From Candidatus Heimdallarchaeota archaeon (GTDB lineage Archaea; Asgardarchaeota; Heimdallarchaeia; Hodarchaeales; Hodarchaeaceae), in assembly GCA_020353515.1 (NCBI GenBank), contig CP070695.1:3774277-3838276 (forward strand): a stretch of DNA of 64,000 bases, read 5' to 3'. Each line of letters starts with the position of its first letter. Position 1 is the stretch's first letter. Below are positions 40,591 to 50,183 of the stretch, piece by piece. The position numbers and the translations under genes were made by a program. The notes under the pieces are model-generated. The model made no database searches. It saw nothing but the letters and a program-made list of their open reading frames with translations, and had not been told where the DNA came from.

Positions 40591-43500
40591 ATGACTCTCA
40601 ATTCCCTTTTACTAAGAGACGACATCCCTGACGATGTAATAAGAGAAATCAAATTAGCAATTACTGATCAAAGAAAAATAGAAGAAAACTCTCTAAAAAC
40701 AGAAACAAGACTCCAATTTCTACTTAAATCCAGTCCAGCAGTAATTTTTTCTTGTGAACCTCGAGATAACTTCCCAACAACCTTTATGAGCGAGAACGTA
40801 AAGGAAATCCTTGGCCATGATGTTCATGAGTTTATTAGCAATCCGAGTTTCTGGACTAACGGAATCCATCCTGATGATAGACAACATTCAGTGGAAATAT
40901 TTCAGGGAATAGTTCAAAGTGAACATTATAGTGTAACTTACCGCTTTAAACACAAAAATGGTTCTTATCTTTGGATGATGGATGAAGCTACTCTTATTCG
41001 AGACAACCAGGGGAACCCCATTGAGATTGTGGGCTATTGGACTGATATTACAAAACAGAAAGAAGCAGAGGAAAGGTTACGTAAAAGTGAAGAAGACTAC
41101 AGATCGCTCTTTGAAAACATACCAATTGGCTTATATCGTAGCACACCTGATCATGAATTTGTTGCAGCTAATCCAACCTTTATCAAACAGGTAGGACTTT
41201 CTTCGTTTGAAGAATTAGCATTGATTGAGCCTAATAAGCTAGCGACAAGACGAAATTATCCAAGGGATCGTTTTCTAAAGGAAATCCATACGAAGGGGGA
41301 AGTCAAAGGATTGGAGTTTGAACTTAAAAAATCCGATGGAACATCAATATATATCAGAGAAAATGCAAGAGCAATCAAAGATTCAAAAGGAACAATCAGA
41401 TATTATGAAGGGAGTGTTGAAGATATTACTGACCGAGTTCTAATGGAAGAAGCTTTACGTGAAAGTGAGACAAAATATCGGACTTTAGTTGAACGAGCAA
41501 ACGATGGAATTGCAATTGTTCAGGGTGGTAAGTTAGGTGACAAGTTTCTATTCATCAACCAGCGATTTGCGCAAATGCTTGGATACAGACCTGATGAACT
41601 CCTGAATATGTCTTATGCACAGGTTGTTCATCCTGACGCTTTTCCTGAAATTAATGAGCGTCGTAAAGCCAGATTAGCGGGTAATGAAGTTTCTCTTACC
41701 TATGATTCAAAACTAATAAAGAAAAATGGCAATTCATTAGAAGTGGGGTTAAATCTGGGAATAATTGATTATCAGGGGGAAGAAGCAGTTCTAGCGATAG
41801 TCAGGGACATAACAAAACGTAAGCAAGCAGAAGAACAACTCCAATACCAAGCGAATCTGCTAACATATGTTTCTGATGCTGTGATTGCAAGCGATTTGGA
41901 CTTCCGAATAACAAGTTGGAATAAGGCAGCAGAAAAAATCTACGGATGGCAAGAAGAAGAAGTTCTGGGAAAAGAAGTAGGAATATTACTGCATCAGGAA
42001 TTCCCCTATCACATAAGAGATGATGTATTAGGCGATTTCATGAGGGAGGGGATCTGGCAAGGTGAAGTTATACAGAAAAGAAAAGATGGAACGCCAATTA
42101 ACATCCTCATGTCAGTAGCTTTGGTCAAAGACAGGACAGGCAAACCCATAGCTGCACTAGCAGTAAATCGGGACATTACGGAACGAAAACAGGCAGAACA
42201 AGCGATAAAAGAAAATAAGGAAAAATATCGATCTTTTATTGAGAATTTTCAAGGGATTGCATTTGAGGGTTATGCAGATTATACTCAAGACTTTTTCCTT
42301 GGGAATGTGGAAGAGATAACAGGTTATACTGAGACCGATTTTCTTTCTGGAAGAATTATGTTTAAAGAATTAATCCATCCAGAAGATGCACAACGAATAA
42401 CAAATGATGTTGTTAAGTTCTATTCTTCATCTAAAGAATTGACTCGAAGAGAATATCGTATTTTCGACCGATATGGTACCATTCACTGGCTTCAAGAAGA
42501 TATTAAGAAGTTTTATAATAAAGAAAAAGACAAAATTGGCGTATATGGTACAATTCAAGATATTACCAAGAGAAAACAGGCAGAGGAAGCATTAAGGGAA
42601 AATGAGGAGAAATATCGATCACTCGTTGAGCTAGCCAATGATGGGATTGTTATTATTCGTGATATGAAGTTTAATTTCCTTAATAGACAAGCAGTAGAAA
42701 TGCTGGGTTATACTGTTGAAGAGTTAATTGATGTTCCATTCGCTAAAGTAGTTCATCCTGATGGATTTAACGATGCTCTTAAGATGTATCAGGATAGGAT
42801 GGCGGGGCACGATGTACCATCGAAATATGAAATGAAATTATCACGTAAAGATGGAACCCCATTAGACGTGGAAATTAATGTAAGAATGATCACTTATCAA
42901 GATGGTACAGCAGAACTTGCAATGGCTCGTGATATCACTGAGCGAAAGAAGGCTGAAATAGCTTTACGTGAAAGTGAGGAGAGATTACGAAAGTTTATGG
43001 AGTCAGCTACCGATGGATTTACCCTTCTGGATTTAAATTTAAACTTCATTGATATTAACAAAGCAGGATTAATAGGACTCAACCTAGCAGAAGAGGAAGT
43101 AGTGGGAAAGAATTTCCTAGAAATTTTCCCCAAACTAAAGGATTCAAGTACATACGATAACTATCTCGAAGTTTTAAAGACTGGAAAACCATATTATAGT
43201 GATGATATTGATTCTGCTCCAAGAATCAGAAATAAGTACTATTCAGTGAGGGCCTTCAAAGTGGGTGATGGACTTGGTATTATTACCACGGATATTACTG
43301 ATCGGGTAAAAGCAGAAAAAACTAGAGAAGAGCTAGAACAGCGACGTGATAGCTTTGTTTGGATGACCAGTCATGAACTTAGAACTCCCCTGACCGTTCT
43401 TACAGGATACTGTGACTTTCTAATCGAGCATATAAATGATCTAGCCCAACAACGCATAACAAACATCTTAAGTGTTATGAAAAACAATTTAGATAGATTA

Positions 43501-44031
43501 GAACGTTTAACCAGCAAAGTGAGTACAATCGGACAAATTGAACGAGGTATTTTTGAAATTGAAAAAACCTCAATGAATTTATGTGATTTTCTGCAGAATA
43601 CACTAGAACCTTACCATCAGCTATTAGGAAACCAGTTTGAATTTCAAGGATGCTTAGAGGAATCTGCAATAATCATCGATGGGGATCCGCACAGGCTGCA
43701 ACAGGTATTAGATAATATCATTGGTAACGCTATTAAGCAAACGGATAAAGATAGCAGGAGAATAAGCGTCACATCGAAGATTTTTCCCTTAGAAATAAAA
43801 ATTGAAGTTTCAGATAACGGCGCAGGGATTAGATCAGAGGATTTGAATCTGATTTTTGATCAATTCGTAAGTATTCCAACAGAATTTTCTGCCACTGGCA
43901 CAGGTATCGGGCTGTATTTATGTCGAAAGACACTGGAAGCACATGGAGGAAAAATTACAGCAGAGAGTAAAGGACCAGGTCTTGGAGCAACCTTTATTAT
44001 CGAACTTCCAAGGAAAAGTAACTTCAAATAG
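40591..44031 (+). CDS. Cytoplasmic sensor histidine kinase with seven PAS/PAC domains
   Basis: Seven DIT.[RQ] PAC ends; H-box SHELRTPL; N-box NIIGNAIK; DNGAGI; GTGIGL. Confidence 0.93.
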   Translation: MTLNSLLLRDDIPDDVIREIKLAITDQRKIEENSLKTETRLQFLLKSSPAVIFSCEPRDNFPTTFMSENVKEILGHDVHEFISNPSFWTNGIHPDDRQHSVEIFQGIVQSEHYSVTYRFKHKNGSYLWMMDEATLIRDNQGNPIEIVGYWTDITKQKEAEERLRKSEEDYRSLFENIPIGLYRSTPDHEFVAANPTFIKQVGLSSFEELALIEPNKLATRRNYPRDRFLKEIHTKGEVKGLEFELKKSDGTSIYIRENARAIKDSKGTIRYYEGSVEDITDRVLMEEALRESETKYRTLVERANDGIAIVQGGKLGDKFLFINQRFAQMLGYRPDELLNMSYAQVVHPDAFPEINERRKARLAGNEVSLTYDSKLIKKNGNSLEVGLNLGIIDYQGEEAVLAIVRDITKRKQAEEQLQYQANLLTYVSDAVIASDLDFRITSWNKAAEKIYGWQEEEVLGKEVGILLHQEFPYHIRDDVLGDFMREGIWQGEVIQKRKDGTPINILMSVALVKDRTGKPIAALAVNRDITERKQAEQAIKENKEKYRSFIENFQGIAFEGYADYTQDFFLGNVEEITGYTETDFLSGRIMFKELIHPEDAQRITNDVVKFYSSSKELTRREYRIFDRYGTIHWLQEDIKKFYNKEKDKIGVYGTIQDITKRKQAEEALRENEEKYRSLVELANDGIVIIRDMKFNFLNRQAVEMLGYTVEELIDVPFAKVVHPDGFNDALKMYQDRMAGHDVPSKYEMKLSRKDGTPLDVEINVRMITYQDGTAELAMARDITERKKAEIALRESEERLRKFMESATDGFTLLDLNLNFIDINKAGLIGLNLAEEEVVGKNFLEIFPKLKDSSTYDNYLEVLKTGKPYYSDDIDSAPRIRNKYYSVRAFKVGDGLGIITTDITDRVKAEKTREELEQRRDSFVWMTSHELRTPLTVLTGYCDFLIEHINDLAQQRITNILSVMKNNLDRLERLTSKVSTIGQIERGIFEIEKTSMNLCDFLQNTLEPYHQLLGNQFEFQGCLEESAIIIDGDPHRLQQVLDNIIGNAIKQTDKDSRRISVTSKIFPLEIKIEVSDNGAGIRSEDLNLIFDQFVSIPTEFSATGTGIGLYLCRKTLEAHGGKITAESKGPGLGATFIIELPRKSNFK

Positions 44032-44425: not shown

Positions 44426-45703
44426 GTGAACTCTATGTCTAGTACTAATTTTTCTGCTCTTTTTACAAACTTTCAATCAGTGTTCATAGAGGCTGGAGAA
44501 AAGGTGTTTGCATCTAATTACATTCCAAATCACCTTTGGCACCGGGAGGAAGAAATGAAAAGCTTAGTTAATTACTTTAGGTCTATTATTACTGAACCTA
44601 CTGGGAGTAGCAGAAAGGTTGTGCTCTATGGGCCAGTTGGTACCGGAAAAACAGTCATTTCGAGGGCATTCGGAGCAGATCTAACCAGGTATTTAAGGTC
44701 AGAACATAAACCAGGAGACCCAAGTTTTCGATTCTTCCATGTGAATTGTCGAAAGACCAAGACCCCACATTTGATTTTAACAACGGTCTTAAGACAGCTT
44801 GTTCCTGGTTTTCCTTTGCGAGGTTTTTCAGTCGATGAACTGTTGAGAATGTTTTCCCTATTGCTTTATGAGCAAAATTTGGTATCTCTACTTGTATTAG
44901 ATGAGATTGATTACTTAATATCTGATGAGCGAACAGATTTTCTTTACGCTTTGTCACGTATAGAGGAAGGAGAGTCTAAAATCCGAAATGACCATTTCTC
45001 TACGTTTCCTGGTAATCACACGGAATCTCGTTTCAACCTATTATGTTGCACCCGAGACAAGAATTTTCGCTATCATCTTGACTCCTCCACCATCTCCTCC
45101 CTTGGTAGAAACTTCATTACTTTCCCTCCTTACACTAGAAATCAGCTTTTCGATATTGTGAGCTCTCGTGCTGAGCTAGGACTCCGAGAAGAGAGTTACA
45201 ATAATGATCTCATTGAAGTCATTGCAAGTCTCGCAGAAGAATATGGAGACGCACGATTTGCCATTGAATTGTTATGGCGAGCTGCGAAACTAGCAGACCG
45301 AGAAAAGAAGGATCAGATCACAGCTGAGCATGTACGTAAAGCAGTCGTATCTGTACTCCCCATTGAAAAATCAGTTCTTGAAGACTTGAATACCCATCAA
45401 AAATTATTATTATTAAGCATTGCTAGACTTCTTTGCGACAATAGACCATTTGTAACTACTCCAGAGGTCAAACATTCCTATATGAGCGTTTGTGAGGAGG
45501 CAGGTGTTCGTGCGAGGCGCCAAACACAAATGTGGGCCTATCTGAAGGATCTAGGCCGACTAGGACTCATTCAACAAGAGGTAGAGAATCGTCATAAAAA
45601 CGGACGGTCGATGGGAAGGGTCACGACAATACGGGTCCGTGATATCCCTGTCAACGAGATCATTCAGTCCTTAAATCACTTAATCGAAGATTCACAATCC
45701 TAA
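44426..45703 (+). CDS. cdc6: Orc1/Cdc6 replication initiation protein
   Basis: P..LWHREEE, GPVGTGKT, VNC, LDEID, GDARFAIELL, C-terminal wHTH. Confidence 0.93.
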   Translation: MNSMSSTNFSALFTNFQSVFIEAGEKVFASNYIPNHLWHREEEMKSLVNYFRSIITEPTGSSRKVVLYGPVGTGKTVISRAFGADLTRYLRSEHKPGDPSFRFFHVNCRKTKTPHLILTTVLRQLVPGFPLRGFSVDELLRMFSLLLYEQNLVSLLVLDEIDYLISDERTDFLYALSRIEEGESKIRNDHFSTFPGNHTESRFNLLCCTRDKNFRYHLDSSTISSLGRNFITFPPYTRNQLFDIVSSRAELGLREESYNNDLIEVIASLAEEYGDARFAIELLWRAAKLADREKKDQITAEHVRKAVVSVLPIEKSVLEDLNTHQKLLLLSIARLLCDNRPFVTTPEVKHSYMSVCEEAGVRARRQTQMWAYLKDLGRLGLIQQEVENRHKNGRSMGRVTTIRVRDIPVNEIIQSLNHLIEDSQS

Positions 45704-46614: not shown

Positions 46615-47604
46615 TTGGCGAAAGATAAAGAATTTTATGTTCGTGATTTAGCAATCGATGATGAATATGACACTATCACAGCCAATAAATCAGTTAAAGA
46701 TGCAGCTCTAAAAATGAAAGAGCTAGGGATTCCTGATTTAGTTGTAGTTAATAAAGAAGATAAGAAGAAAGTTTTAGGTGTTATAGCAGACTTTGATATT
46801 GTAACAGGACTTGTTGCTGAAGGGTTGTCTGCAGAAACATCTAAAGTGACAGAAATCATGTATACAATTGATCCTGTGACCAAGGATACCCCAGTATCAA
46901 CTGCTTTCTCTCGGATGCGTGATTTAGATGTCTCGATTATTCCAGTCATCGAAAAAGATGAATTAGTCGGTGTTGCGACTATTACTGACTGTTGGGGTTT
47001 TTTACCCGAGAAATATGAAGACCAAAGAGGATTAATTGCCGTTAATAATCCTCGATTCGCAAATTATGGCTTCACAATTTTAATGACTTTACTCTACTTT
47101 TGTTTTGGGATTTTAGCACCTTTTGCGGGTTTTACTGGATTTATAAAGGCACCAACTGCTGGCTCAGCTATTGGATCCCAAATTACTACTTATGGCCTCT
47201 TTGATGCACGAGGAGGAGGTTTTTATATTGGTTACTTAGAATTTCAGGGCACGTACAGTCTCATGTGGCTAGCAATGTTTCTTTATGGGATTATATTCTT
47301 GATTCTAGGAATATTTAGTACTTGGTGCATAATCCACTGGTCGAACGCAGATTATCATTTAGTTAAGACGGATAGAAATTGGCAAGCATTAGGCCTCGGT
47401 GTAGGCATAGTAAATCTCCTTATAGAGTGGGGCCTGTTCGTTATTGTAATTATACTCGGAATCCTACGTATCTCAGATGGTCAAATAACACTCGATATCT
47501 TTGGACTCCTGTTTTCTGGATTGGCGATTATCTTCCTTATTGCAGCTGTTTCTCGGGATATTCTCTTCCGTGAGAGTACACCAACCACTTCAGAGGAGGG
47601 GTGA
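46615..47604 (+). CDS. CBS-pair domain protein with C-terminal four-TM domain
   Basis: Two CBS motifs (VLGVIADFDI; PVIEKDELVGVATITD) followed by 4 TMs. Confidence 0.85.
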   Translation: MAKDKEFYVRDLAIDDEYDTITANKSVKDAALKMKELGIPDLVVVNKEDKKKVLGVIADFDIVTGLVAEGLSAETSKVTEIMYTIDPVTKDTPVSTAFSRMRDLDVSIIPVIEKDELVGVATITDCWGFLPEKYEDQRGLIAVNNPRFANYGFTILMTLLYFCFGILAPFAGFTGFIKAPTAGSAIGSQITTYGLFDARGGGFYIGYLEFQGTYSLMWLAMFLYGIIFLILGIFSTWCIIHWSNADYHLVKTDRNWQALGLGVGIVNLLIEWGLFVIVIILGILRISDGQITLDIFGLLFSGLAIIFLIAAVSRDILFRESTPTTSEEG

Positions 47605-49292
47605 GTTGTATGCCTCGTGGTGGTGGTGGCTTCCGAGGTGGGGGTTTAGGTGGTGGTGGTTTTCGTGGAGGAGGTTTCCGAGGTGGGAGTCGAAGCTTTC
47701 GAGTAGGAAGTGTCAGATCTTCAGGGCGACCTTTCGGTCGTACTGGCTCACGTAGAACAGTTTCACGAGCGCCTCGTGGTAGAAGTTATCACAGACCCCA
47801 TCATAGACGACATTGGGGGGGATATTATCGACCATGGTATCGTCGATGGTGGCACTGGCATTGGTGGTGGGGATATCCTTATCGGCCTTGGTATTATGCC
47901 CCAGTTTACTGGGGAGGTGGGGCAATTCTCGCGATCATTGCCTTACTAGTGATTCTTCCCCTCATTGGAGTAGCTTTCTGGTACCCCTTCTCAAATACTT
48001 CGCCAAGTGGTGTAGTAACTTACTCCGACACCCAGACTTTATTCTACAACGAATATTGGTATGAGAAAGAGTACTTATCGCAAGGGCAAAGTATTGACTA
48101 CCGTGTGGAAGCTCAGAGTGAAGTGACTTTTCTTATTTGGAACCAACCATTTGAAAATTTCCCCCTCTCAGATAGCCCTCTTACAGGAAGTTATAGTGAG
48201 AATGATATGACTGTTTTAGGAAATCATGATTATCAATATGTTGGTTATTTTTTAAAACCAGGATCCCGACTCGATTATCAATTCAATGTTACTTTAGGCG
48301 GTCCCATTGAATTTTTCGTCACAGATGCTAACGATTTATACCGTTGGAACAATTGGGAGACAATTATCTTCAAAGATTCTTACATAGGATCCGCAGGCTA
48401 TAGTGGAGGAATTGACATCAATTATGCTCAAGATTATTATCTAGTATGGTATAACAGCGGAACTAATCCCGTCTCCATCGATTTTACGGTCGATTATTCA
48501 GCAGCGGGCGCTTTCGATTTTAGTGATGCGGAAGATAATGGTGTTCTTGAACGAGATGTCGTAGATCCTGTATCTGGTTCTCTATCTGTTCCTTCAAGTG
48601 GTGACTGGTACTTCTTTGTATATTTTGATCCTTTTGTTAACCCGGCAGAATCAGTTGATATTACATTTGATGTCTCGTACAATACAGAAGTCACTTATGA
48701 CCAACAGTGGAAAAAAGTTACACCAATTTTTCTCCTTATTGGCTTCATTATTGTAATTTTACTTATTGTAGCTATTATCCAAAGAAGAACATCCAAGGAA
48801 ACTCCTTCACCCACCGACACAACCACAACAACAACACCAGTCTCTACAACTCCACCAACAACAACAGAAACGGTGCAGGTTGAGACATCTAAGACCTGTC
48901 ATCGGTGTAATTCACTCTCTAAACTTGGTGATGTTTATTGTGTCAATTGTGGTGCAAAACTATCTGGTCGAGATTATGGCGTATCCACAATAACAACGCC
49001 AGCCTCTGCAAAGAATTGTCGTAGCTGTGGAAAAGCTCTAATCCCCGAAAGTAGGTATTGTAAATATTGCGGAGCTAAGATCGAACAGGAAGCTAAACCT
49101 TACAAATATTTCCCTGATGAACGAGAAGCATTCTTCTGTCAATTAGACAATGAAAAACATCCCTCAACCGACTCTGCTTATGAATGTGAACAGTGTTCAC
49201 GTAAGATCTGTGGAGATTGTTATAACACAATCACTCAGACTGGAGTGACACGATGTCCATATTGTAAGGGAGAATTACGCCAAATTCAATGA
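47601..49292 (+). CDS. Two-TM protein: RGG and W/R-rich N-terminus, extracellular beta domains, Thr-rich linker, two Zn ribbons, C-terminal RING-like finger
   Basis: GGGFRGG repeats; TMs; CHRC..CVNC, CRSC..CKYC; C-x2-D-x12-C-x2-C-x4-C-x2-C-x11-C-x2-C. Likely start is ATG 47610. Confidence 0.8.
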   Translation: MSCMPRGGGGFRGGGLGGGGFRGGGFRGGSRSFRVGSVRSSGRPFGRTGSRRTVSRAPRGRSYHRPHHRRHWGGYYRPWYRRWWHWHWWWGYPYRPWYYAPVYWGGGAILAIIALLVILPLIGVAFWYPFSNTSPSGVVTYSDTQTLFYNEYWYEKEYLSQGQSIDYRVEAQSEVTFLIWNQPFENFPLSDSPLTGSYSENDMTVLGNHDYQYVGYFLKPGSRLDYQFNVTLGGPIEFFVTDANDLYRWNNWETIIFKDSYIGSAGYSGGIDINYAQDYYLVWYNSGTNPVSIDFTVDYSAAGAFDFSDAEDNGVLERDVVDPVSGSLSVPSSGDWYFFVYFDPFVNPAESVDITFDVSYNTEVTYDQQWKKVTPIFLLIGFIIVILLIVAIIQRRTSKETPSPTDTTTTTTPVSTTPPTTTETVQVETSKTCHRCNSLSKLGDVYCVNCGAKLSGRDYGVSTITTPASAKNCRSCGKALIPESRYCKYCGAKIEQEAKPYKYFPDEREAFFCQLDNEKHPSTDSAYECEQCSRKICGDCYNTITQTGVTRCPYCKGELRQIQ

Positions 49293-49367: not shown

Positions 49368-50183
49368 TTGGTAATAAAACATAACAATAAAGATTCGGTC
49401 TTATTAGGGAAGATTTTTATTAGTATATTCATTGTATTGACTATAGGAGTTATTTTTGCGGTATTATATTTTGGAATCAATATTGGAATGGAATTATATC
49501 AGTTTGTATATCGATTTTATGATGAATTTGGCATTCTTGGGATAAATATTGGAGTTTTCATTATCAGTATTTTTGGTAATTTTACAATTATTTTCCCTGT
49601 TCCATACCTCTTCGCCCTTATTCTCATTAGTCTTCTACCAGATATTCACAATAATCCATTAATGCTTCTGCTTCTTGGTTTTTCTGCGGGTTTAGGAGCA
49701 TCAATTGGTGAACTTACAGCATGGATCCTGGGTAGAGCAGGAGAAAAGACACTAAAGGAATCATCAAAATTAGAGAAAATGAATCAATGGGTAGAAAAAG
49801 GATATGCCCCTTTTCTGATTTTTCTCTTTGCAGCAACACCGCTACCTGATGATGCCTTCATGGTGGTATTAGGTCTGGCAAATTATACGTTGTGGAAAGT
49901 ATTATTATTCTGTTTCATAGGAAAAGTAACTTTGACATGTACAACCGCTTTTATAGCTTCTACAGCCAGCGAAACAACTCTGGGCCAGTTCTTTTTCAAA
50001 CTTTATGGCATCGATTTGAAGATGATAGAAACAGGCGTGATTCAACCAACTTCCTTCATCGAGATAGTGCTTAGCACTGTAACTTGGATTCTCACGACAT
50101 TATTAATCGCTGGATTTATTCTTATAGATTGGAATGAAACGTATAACAAAATAACAAAATTTCTGAAACGAGAACATGTTTAA
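49368..50183 (+). CDS. DedA/VTT (SNARE-associated) family membrane protein
   Basis: FPVPY, GASIGELTAWILGR, FAATPLPDD. Confidence 0.88.
   Translation: MVIKHNNKDSVLLGKIFISIFIVLTIGVIFAVLYFGINIGMELYQFVYRFYDEFGILGINIGVFIISIFGNFTIIFPVPYLFALILISLLPDIHNNPLMLLLLGFSAGLGASIGELTAWILGRAGEKTLKESSKLEKMNQWVEKGYAPFLIFLFAATPLPDDAFMVVLGLANYTLWKVLLFCFIGKVTLTCTTAFIASTASETTLGQFFFKLYGIDLKMIETGVIQPTSFIEIVLSTVTWILTTLLIAGFILIDWNETYNKITKFLKREHV

Follow-up and report, generated by a model that had tools for sequence, protein, structure and literature searches.

An APD-like two-pass membrane protein with a RING-like cytoplasmic finger in a Heimdall-group Asgard archaeon

A 64,000-nt stretch of the genome of Candidatus Heimdallarchaeota archaeon (assembly GCA_020353515.1, contig CP070695.1, positions 3,774,277 to 3,838,276), referred to here as the window, contains a gene for a membrane protein that resembles the eukaryotic APD1-4 proteins. 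This APD-like protein is a two-pass membrane protein with both termini in the cytoplasm (N-in/C-in). Its outer domain is, as judged from profile comparisons, almost certainly homologous to the luminal APD1-4_N/M domain of the eukaryotic APD proteins. The cytoplasmic tail ends in a module that is probably a RING-superfamily finger (RING fold) of C4C4 type, in which ligand 2 is Asp. Plant APD1-4 have been called 'transmembrane RING E3s', and are 'orphan' endomembrane RING ligases, the substrates of which are not known (PMC13210498).

Similarity of the outer domain to eukaryotic APD proteins

When 62 Asgard domains were compared with 20 eukaryote-type proteins by hhalign, the match had a probability of 99.7 % and an E-value of 3e-25 over 232 columns. 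It began in the first beta block, at profile position 35, took in both the central GOLD-like and the last block, and reached the end of the second transmembrane (TM) helix. Both luminal motifs singled out in the initial annotation fell on conserved cores of this alignment.

A profile built from Asgard sequences only was run against 1.84 billion proteins and retrieved, at E 3.3e-10, P0183 from Pellita catalonica and, at E 1.4e-8, P0189. Each of the two scored above the Pfam cut-offs for APD1-4_N (PF16040) and APD1-4_M (PF16041). The amoebozoan sources were Pellita (P0183), Cochliopodium (P0215) and Balamuthia (P0213 and P0274). In the reciprocal search, a eukaryote-only profile gave the Asgard family 73-89 bits over positions about 6-312 of the 319 in the hidden Markov model, and ranked it directly behind the APD-type proteins. 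No generic prokaryotic GOLD-like protein was found in the top 110 of this search. The resemblance to APD1-4_N/APD1-4_M, which the annotation had proposed, was thus borne out in both directions, and the lack of APD similarity that it had named as counter-evidence was not what we found.

The window protein itself scored 13-15 bits against Pfam APD1-4_N, under the gathering threshold of 27. The same Pfam family was matched below threshold by 48 of the 62 family members (best E 4.1e-7), and two distant archaeal relatives, P0204 and P0207, exceeded the threshold with 33.7 and 35.9 bits. By shape, a search of the ESM Atlas ranked a Streptophyta APD cluster second, behind the protein's own family; by feature, all scores were <0.9 and served as leads only. 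A word-based homologue search from the amoebozoan protein P0183 gave no match besides P0183, and a search with the eukaryote-type alignment gave seven matches, with no named plant protein among them.

The AlphaFold2 (AF2) model of aa 105-400 consisted of a helix, beta-sandwich blocks and another helix, with a predicted local distance difference test score (pLDDT) of 91.7. The central block superposed on the GOLD domains of TMED1 and p24beta1 (7rrm and 5azw; TM-score by target 0.74-0.79), and the GOLD matches 7rrm, 5azw and 5gu5 had a probability of 1.0, TM-scores by target of 0.68-0.79 and E-values of about 1e-6. In this model the outer domain has a GOLD-like beta-sandwich at its centre. The p24 sequence signature was not found, EMP24_GP25L being matched by only one of 62 family members (E 0.041). 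Birnavirus VP2 capsids, the top Foldseek matches of the luminal model, were dismissed as jelly-roll noise (root mean square deviation 15-22 Å, TM-score 0.2).

The p24/TMED cargo receptors are likewise membrane-anchored and carry a luminal or extracytoplasmic binding domain. However, p24 proteins cross the membrane once (type I) and have a coiled coil and a short tail that binds coat protein (COP), whereas the window protein has two TM helices, zinc-finger tails and additional beta blocks flanking its GOLD-like block.

Architecture of the protein

The initial annotation had read the open reading frame from a GTG at 47601 (47601-49292, forward strand; 563 aa). The frame was correct and the gene is real, but translation probably starts 9 nt later, at ATG 47610, because the TGA stop of the upstream gene occupies 47602-47604, a GGAGG motif (47595-47599) lies 10 nt ahead of this ATG, and every homologue has the N-terminus MPRGGGG. 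The database copy of the protein (P0002) is 560 aa long.

Hydropathy revealed two strongly hydrophobic segments, at about aa 104-128 and 369-393 (TM residue positions are in P0001 numbering). The ~240 aa between them were beta-rich and Cys-free, with a net charge of -27. On the other side of the membrane, the first 100 aa had a net charge of +21, and all 15 cysteines were in the C-terminal tail. As in the APD1-4 family, a TM helix lies on either side of the luminal domain and the two termini face the cytoplasm.

The tail contained two zinc-ribbon units (48897-48950 and 49017-49070), each C-x2-C-x10-C-x2-C. Pfam DZR (PF12773) matched them with 31-32.4 bits against a cut-off of 27.3, and the ribbons were conserved in nearly all members of the family. 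The TM segment, extracellular region, second TM segment, two ribbons and RING-like-spaced pattern of the annotation were each found where it had placed them.

A RING-like finger at the C-terminus

The pattern C-x2-D-x12-C-x2-C-x4-C-x2-C-x11-C-x2-C was present at 49137-49265, exactly as annotated. In 33 orthologues and 22 paralogous modules the spacing was C-x2-[D/C/H]-x11-12-C-x2-C-x4-C-x2-C-x8-11-C-x2-C, which provides eight RING-compatible ligands. The invariant residues in the orthologues (57-94 % identical within the module) were C17, D20, H24, C33, C36, C41, C44, C56 and C59, numbered in a 67-residue slice, together with L19, P57 and K60. A Leu between ligands 1 and 2, a Pro after ligand 7 and a Lys after ligand 8 are at the canonical E2-contact positions.

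Across 28 modules, ligands 1, 3, 4, 7 and 8 were invariant Cys, ligand 2 was Asp, Cys or His, and the residue preceding ligand 2 was always Ile, Leu or Val. His24 was considered as the second ligand and rejected: in paralogues it is replaced by Leu or another residue, whereas position 20 stays D/H/C. C-x2-[D/C/H] was therefore taken as the first ligand pair.

The best match of a broad profile of the module was the cellulose-synthase RING 1weo (E 1.9e-5), and the alignment took in each of the eight ligands. Two further cellulose-synthase chains followed at E 3.8e-4 and 1.1e-3, and TFIIH p44, TRIM32, TRIM37, BRE1, NOT4 and Ring1B were matched at E 0.001-0.01; the NOT4 alignment (E 0.0069) again covered all ligand positions. 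In Pfam, zf-RING_4 was matched by all 33 orthologues and zf-UDP by 32 of them (best E 6.1e-6, under the cut-off). The finger is C-D-C6, not C3HC4, and zf-C3HC4_3 gave only 13.2 bits. The cellulose-synthase RING (1weo, zf-UDP) and the CNOT4 RING (1e4u, zf-RING_4) also have eight ligands at nearly the same spacing. They differ from the module in its Asp at ligand 2 in the window lineage and in its Pfam scores under the cut-offs.

The AF2 model of the module had a pLDDT of 66 overall and about 80 in residues 28-67, which formed a beta-hairpin, a helix and a strand. Its best Foldseek neighbours were Ring1b, Cbl and Bre1 (probability 0.9-0.97, E 0.04-0.3), and RING or U-box domains accounted for about 35 of the top 50 VIA structural matches. 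The RING-like C-terminus of the annotation was thus upheld by the conserved ligands, the 1weo match and the structural neighbours, albeit with weak scores for the latter; the neighbours did not point to the PHD, B-box or ribbon fold that would speak against it. The last four Cys were also considered as a third plain zinc ribbon. This was disfavoured because a helix separates the two knuckles in the model and the alignment to RINGs extends over the eight-ligand unit as a whole.

The features noted in the annotation exceed chance, since the spacing and ligands of the finger are invariant in the 33 orthologues and the luminal motifs lie on conserved cores of the APD alignment.

Paralogous modules and the ubiquitin machinery

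Paralogues of the module were found fused to unrelated proteins in the genus, with nine paralogous copies in the window genome. One of these proteins, of 380 aa, has an extracytoplasmic CBM96 carbohydrate-binding domain (95.8 bits), a membrane segment and, at the cytoplasmic C-terminus, a copy of the RING-like module. Because it has the same plan as the window protein, an outer binding domain followed by a TM segment and a RING-like finger appears to be a recurring design in the genus.

Another, a PCI protein of 585 aa, has an internal C-x2-D module and a C-terminal all-Cys C4C4 module. Its gene is directly downstream of genes for a ubiquitin (Ub)-like protein (Rad60-SLD/ubiquitin) and an E1, and beside an E2 gene. 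In six of six genomes of the genus, the PCI-module gene was 2.4-2.6 kb from an E1 gene, on the same strand. This linkage is guilt by association for the module family, not for the window protein's own activity. The 585-aa protein is in its own right a candidate for the dedicated E3 of its E1-Ub-E2 cluster.

Above the Pfam cut-offs, the genome encodes four UQ_con (E2), two ubiquitin-family and five ThiF-type (E1) proteins, so that the components the annotation had wanted checked are present. They include three complete E1-Ub-E2 clusters (near 1.38, 3.885 and 3.975 Mb) and a partial one. A complex prediction of the module (A2) with the best-scoring E2 of the genome (P0284), run without controls, scored 0.00, which says nothing either way about binding.

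Archaeal operons for E1, E2 and small RING proteins of ubiquitylation are known in Caldiarchaeum subterraneum and in Asgard archaea. The E1-Ub-E2 clusters of the window genome resemble them, and one includes a protein with the RING-like module. The window module, on the other hand, forms part of a two-pass membrane protein whose outer domain is large, and its gene lies far from the clusters.

Some paralogous modules showed variations. A 420-aa protein (L025 1131-2393, forward strand; G000:C1:620130-621392) contains a PCI domain and two RING-like modules, the second of which has C-x2-H as its first ligand pair. In the modules of L033, L035, L038 and L044 (other genomes of the genus; G000:C1:342186-342392), the sixth ligand is changed from Cys to Ala, Ser or Gly, with Asp or Glu as the residue before it (C-x-D-A), which may provide an alternative carboxylate ligand or mark a degenerate zinc site.

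Distribution and phylogeny

Searching with the luminal region gave 139 relatives, and those with an organism name all belonged to Asgard groups (Heimdall, Hodarchaeales, Loki/Promethearchaeota, Thor, Kari and Hermod). Nearly all 139 combined the TM-lumen-TM layout with a pair of CxxC-x10-CxxC ribbons. The third C-terminal module was present in only the closest ~35 relatives (at least 51 % identity), always with identical spacing. Among 301 sampled genomes of the phylum, 81 had the luminal domain, concentrated in three families (17/20, 49/68 and 6/7), and the C-terminal module was confined to the window's genus (20/20), besides one marginal match (E 8.9e-7). The third cytoplasmic module is drawn from a genus-specific expanded module family and was added in the window's genus alone.

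Two members of the family are domain-shuffled. In P0122 (875 aa), a long N-terminal region rich in TPRs precedes the aromatic tract and the luminal domain, and in P0130 (652 aa) the luminal domain is followed by beta-propeller-like repeats.

A quick maximum-likelihood tree was made without plant sequences; it is unrooted, with branch support from the Shimodaira-Hasegawa-like approximate likelihood-ratio test (SH-aLRT) only. A branch with 100 % SH-aLRT separated the eukaryote-type proteins, together with a 'bridge' group, from the window protein's family. The 'bridge' group consists of archaeal-style proteins with zinc-ribbon tails and no RING, including P0204, a Promethearchaeota protein named 'APD1-4 domain-containing protein' by NCBI. 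The RING-bearing proteins formed one derived clade (SH-aLRT 99) nested among RING-less ones and adjoined by the RING-less protein of Heimdall LC_3. This suggested that the RING-like module was added once, and late.

Because the eukaryotic APDs grouped with another archaeal zinc-ribbon group, the window protein would be a sister-family relative of the APDs, not their direct counterpart or orthologue. In this respect the tree corrects the annotation, which had likened the protein to the APD1-4 E3 ligases. Its suggestion of an unrecognised eukaryotic signature protein needs qualification as well: the link is not wholly unrecognised, given the NCBI name of the divergent relative P0204. In the library searched, no paper connected Asgard archaea with APD1-4 or with its Pfam/InterPro identifiers, and those on APD1-4 all dealt with plants; a lone mention of 'GOLD domain' in an Asgard-related paper concerns a methanogen system.

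With the eukaryotic APD family, to which Arabidopsis APD1-4 belong, the window protein shares the homologous luminal domain and the N-in/C-in two-TM topology. It also shares with amoebozoan and other APD proteins an N-terminus of MP.GGG and G/H/R-rich sequence followed by an aromatic stretch, and with plant APDs a cytoplasmic C-terminal zinc finger of RING class. In the N-terminal tail, the two TM helices and the luminal domain, the resemblance to plant APD1-4 is inherited. There are differences, too. The eukaryotic proteins have a conserved luminal Cys pair that the window protein lacks. The window protein, in contrast, has Pfam scores under the cut-offs, a tail with two zinc ribbons and a C-D-C6 finger, and a gene paired in an operon with one for a CBS-domain membrane protein (CBS-TM). 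Plant APDs have a C3HC4 RING according to the Pfam description, whereas the window finger is C-D-C6 (C4C4-type). Amoebozoan APD proteins have no RING, and their tails are Pro-rich with PPxY-like motifs.

Among the eukaryote-type APD proteins, RING-less Pro-rich tails with PPxY-like motifs at the end were seen in P0183, P0202, P0206 and P0253. PPxY motifs in eukaryotes typically recruit Nedd4-type HECT ligases, and these tails may represent a different route to ubiquitin.

The TM-lumen-TM-RING layout that the annotation had seen as common to both sides is therefore shared only in part. TM-lumen-TM is homologous; the RING part, a late addition at the genus level, is most likely convergent, because apart from one marginal match the module is restricted to one genus (20/20), most Asgard members and the amoebozoan APDs are RING-less, and the ligand type differs.

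Gene neighbourhood

The features of the APD-like gene, its neighbours and two of the paralogues are collected in Table 1. Only 5 nt separate the CBS-TM gene from the ATG of the APD-like gene, and the two genes are translationally coupled. The CBS-TM gene was directly upstream of the APD-like gene in five of five loci, the window and four others; in the latter (L012, L013, L015 and L016, two Heimdall-type and two Loki-type) the spacing was 0-4 nt or a 4-nt overlap. The pair predates the addition of the RING-like module. The TM part of the CBS-TM protein matched no Pfam family.

The VTT/DedA gene downstream was considered as part of the unit and rejected, as it was not at that position in the four other loci. 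Further upstream, the window contains on the forward strand a gene for a 1146-aa histidine kinase (40591-44031), apparently with multiple PAS domains as read from the translation, followed by an Orc1/Cdc6 homologue (44426-45703; Cdc6_lid 76 bits, Cdc6_C 66 bits).

Table 1. Coordinates of the APD-like gene, its parts, neighbouring genes and paralogues (window positions unless a locus is named)
Feature	Position	Strand	Evidence
CBS-TM partner gene, 329 aa, CBS pair and about four TM helices	46615..47604	+	Pfam CBS 45.9 bits, hydropathy
APD-like gene, whole	47610..49292	+	560 aa from ATG 47610; GGAGG 10 nt 5' of ATG
N-terminal cytoplasmic low-complexity region	47610..47909	+	FRGGG repeats, Arg/Ser tract, then Trp/Tyr/Arg/His-rich segment
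TM helix 1	47910..47984	+	hydropathy; AF2 helix at model residues 2-23
Extracytoplasmic domain, beta-sandwich blocks, ~240 aa	47985..48704	+	AF2, hhalign, profile searches, Pfam, GOLD structural matches
Motif YQYVGYFLKPGSRLDYQFNV	48231..48290	+	site of weak Pfam APD1-4_N match
Motif INYAQDYYLVWYNSGTNPVSIDF	48417..48485	+	aligns with D.YYFV..N core of eukaryotic APD proteins
TM helix 2, then basic QRRTSK on cytoplasmic side	48705..48779	+	hydropathy, AF2, inside hhalign match
Cytoplasmic Thr/Pro-rich linker	48780..48896	+	sequence reading
Double zinc ribbon, two C-x2-C-x10-C-x2-C units 22 residues apart	48897..49070	+	Pfam DZR
RING-like module	49113..49289	+	eight-ligand pattern at 49137-49265, conservation, profile and structure searches
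VTT/DedA-family membrane protein	49368..50183	+	40.1 bits; just downstream of APD-like gene
PCI protein with two RING-like modules	L022 3850-5607 = G000:C1:1379849-1381606	-	PCI domain, module matches
CBM96-TM-RING-like protein	L023 756-1898 = G000:C1:1134755-1135897	+	CBM96 95.8 bits, module match

Proposed function and alternative explanations

The best explanation of the whole is an APD-type outer domain with a late RING-type tail, forming a receptor-shaped membrane E3 or E3-like adaptor. We hold the chances for and against this explanation to be even, and real E3 activity, predicted from the sequence, to be slightly less likely than not. The topology, the RING-class finger and the E1, E2 and ubiquitin of the genome agree with the receptor-like membrane E3 of the annotation, and it is from these that we infer the possible activity. 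In such a protein, the outer domain would bind an external or envelope ligand or a cargo, by analogy with the binding of cargo by p24 GOLD domains. The CBS partner may report the cytoplasmic adenine-nucleotide or ion status. The RING-like tail would recruit to the membrane a charged E2 from the ubiquitin-like system of the organism, and the APD-like protein itself, the CBS partner or nearby membrane proteins would become modified.

Several observations weigh against such an E3. All Pfam RING matches were under the cut-off, the best being zf-RING_4 with 24.6 bits against 27, and the Asp at ligand 2 is unusual. The archaeal ribosomal zinc protein aS34 was matched by the broad module profile at E 0.0012, near the scores of the RING proteins, and the best sequence match, the cellulose-synthase RING, is to our knowledge no established E3. 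The first ligand pair sits in a poorly modelled part of the AF2 structure (pLDDT <55), and the cross-brace arrangement of the predicted ligands is for this reason put no higher than likely. The nearest E1-Ub-E2 cluster is about 62 kb away from the APD-like gene. Finally, most family members and the amoebozoan APD proteins have no RING, which argues that the core function of the family is independent of it.

The main alternative is a non-catalytic membrane receptor or scaffold, in which an APD/GOLD-type binder works with the CBS-TM partner and the finger is a zinc-stabilised interaction or oligomerisation module without E2 recruitment. We lean against this alternative while taking it seriously, and the same applies to the partners that the finger would have under it, namely protein, RNA or the ribosome. 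It would account for the absence of the module from most family members and eukaryote-type APD proteins, for the Pfam RING scores under the cut-offs, and for the absence of a Ub cluster adjoining the APD-like gene. It also fits the matches of the module, of which the cellulose-synthase RING was the top one in sequence and aS34, eL43 and TFIIH p44 were further ones; none of these is an E3, as far as we know, and a role in oligomerisation or interaction has been proposed for the cellulose-synthase RING. It does not, however, explain the location of the module family next to E1, Ub-like and E2 genes in six of six genomes, or the conservation at the E2-contact positions (Ile, Leu or Val between the first two ligands, Pro after ligand 7, Lys after ligand 8). 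RING E3 domains, moreover, dominated both structure searches.

The evolutionary part of the preferred explanation, inheritance of the outer domain and late gain of the finger, also has its alternatives. The APD similarity might reflect a mere generic GOLD-type beta-sandwich, convergent or very ancient, that is not specific to APDs. The central block does match p24 GOLD domains, many archaeal and bacterial GOLD-like proteins match the profile at positions about 90-200, and the window protein's own APD1-4_N score is just 13-15 bits. But the 232-column match (E 3e-25) runs from the first beta block to the second TM helix, the eukaryote-only profile places the Asgard family, not generic GOLD proteins, next after the APD-type proteins, and the style of the N-terminal tail and the two-TM topology are common to both sides. 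This alternative is scarcely tenable and is largely refuted already. Alternatively, TM-lumen-TM-RING could be ancestral, with the RING lost later in Loki-type archaea and Amoebozoa. The order of parts equals that described for plant APD1-4 (PMC13210498), and the metagenomic relative P0231 has a RING-H2-like tail (zf-RING_2, 24.4 bits). An ancestral RING is nevertheless quite improbable. The RING bearers are a single derived clade (SH-aLRT 99) among RING-less proteins, with LC_3 alongside; the module is found in one genus only (20/20; one marginal match), is mobile and is fused to CBM96 and PCI proteins; the eukaryote-type APDs group with an archaeal zinc-ribbon group without RING; and the ligands differ, C-D-C6 here and C3HC4 in APD. 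P0231 (370 aa, from a 2.2-kb JGI metagenome contig) combines an RGG-type N-terminus and the luminal domain with a zinc ribbon and the RING-H2-like tail, and may be an independent fusion of a RING to the luminal scaffold.

Significance

Carrying the proposal of a membrane E3 further, we may picture Heimdall-group Asgard archaea running transmembrane E3s in which an outer sensor (APD/GOLD or CBM96) acts through a RING-type finger and E2~ubiquitin to mark membrane proteins on ligand or energy cues (CBS partner). The APD family would then be a eukaryotic signature protein, not listed before, that originated in Asgard archaea, and ubiquitylation at the membrane would be pre-eukaryotic. This picture is speculative, and as a whole we consider it unlikely.

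The Asgard roots of the luminal domain, the topology and the N-terminal tail give the APD family an evolutionary origin, and the APD-like protein extends the list of eukaryote-like Asgard genes by a protein of membrane/trafficking type. The conserved CBS-TM partner offers a way to approach the function of the family as a whole, its eukaryotic members included. If the RING-like tail is active, the protein would be a prokaryotic transmembrane ubiquitin ligase, and the origin of membrane-protein ubiquitylation, the input to sorting by the endosomal sorting complex required for transport (ESCRT) and to quality control in the endoplasmic reticulum, would become testable with a few genes from one genome.

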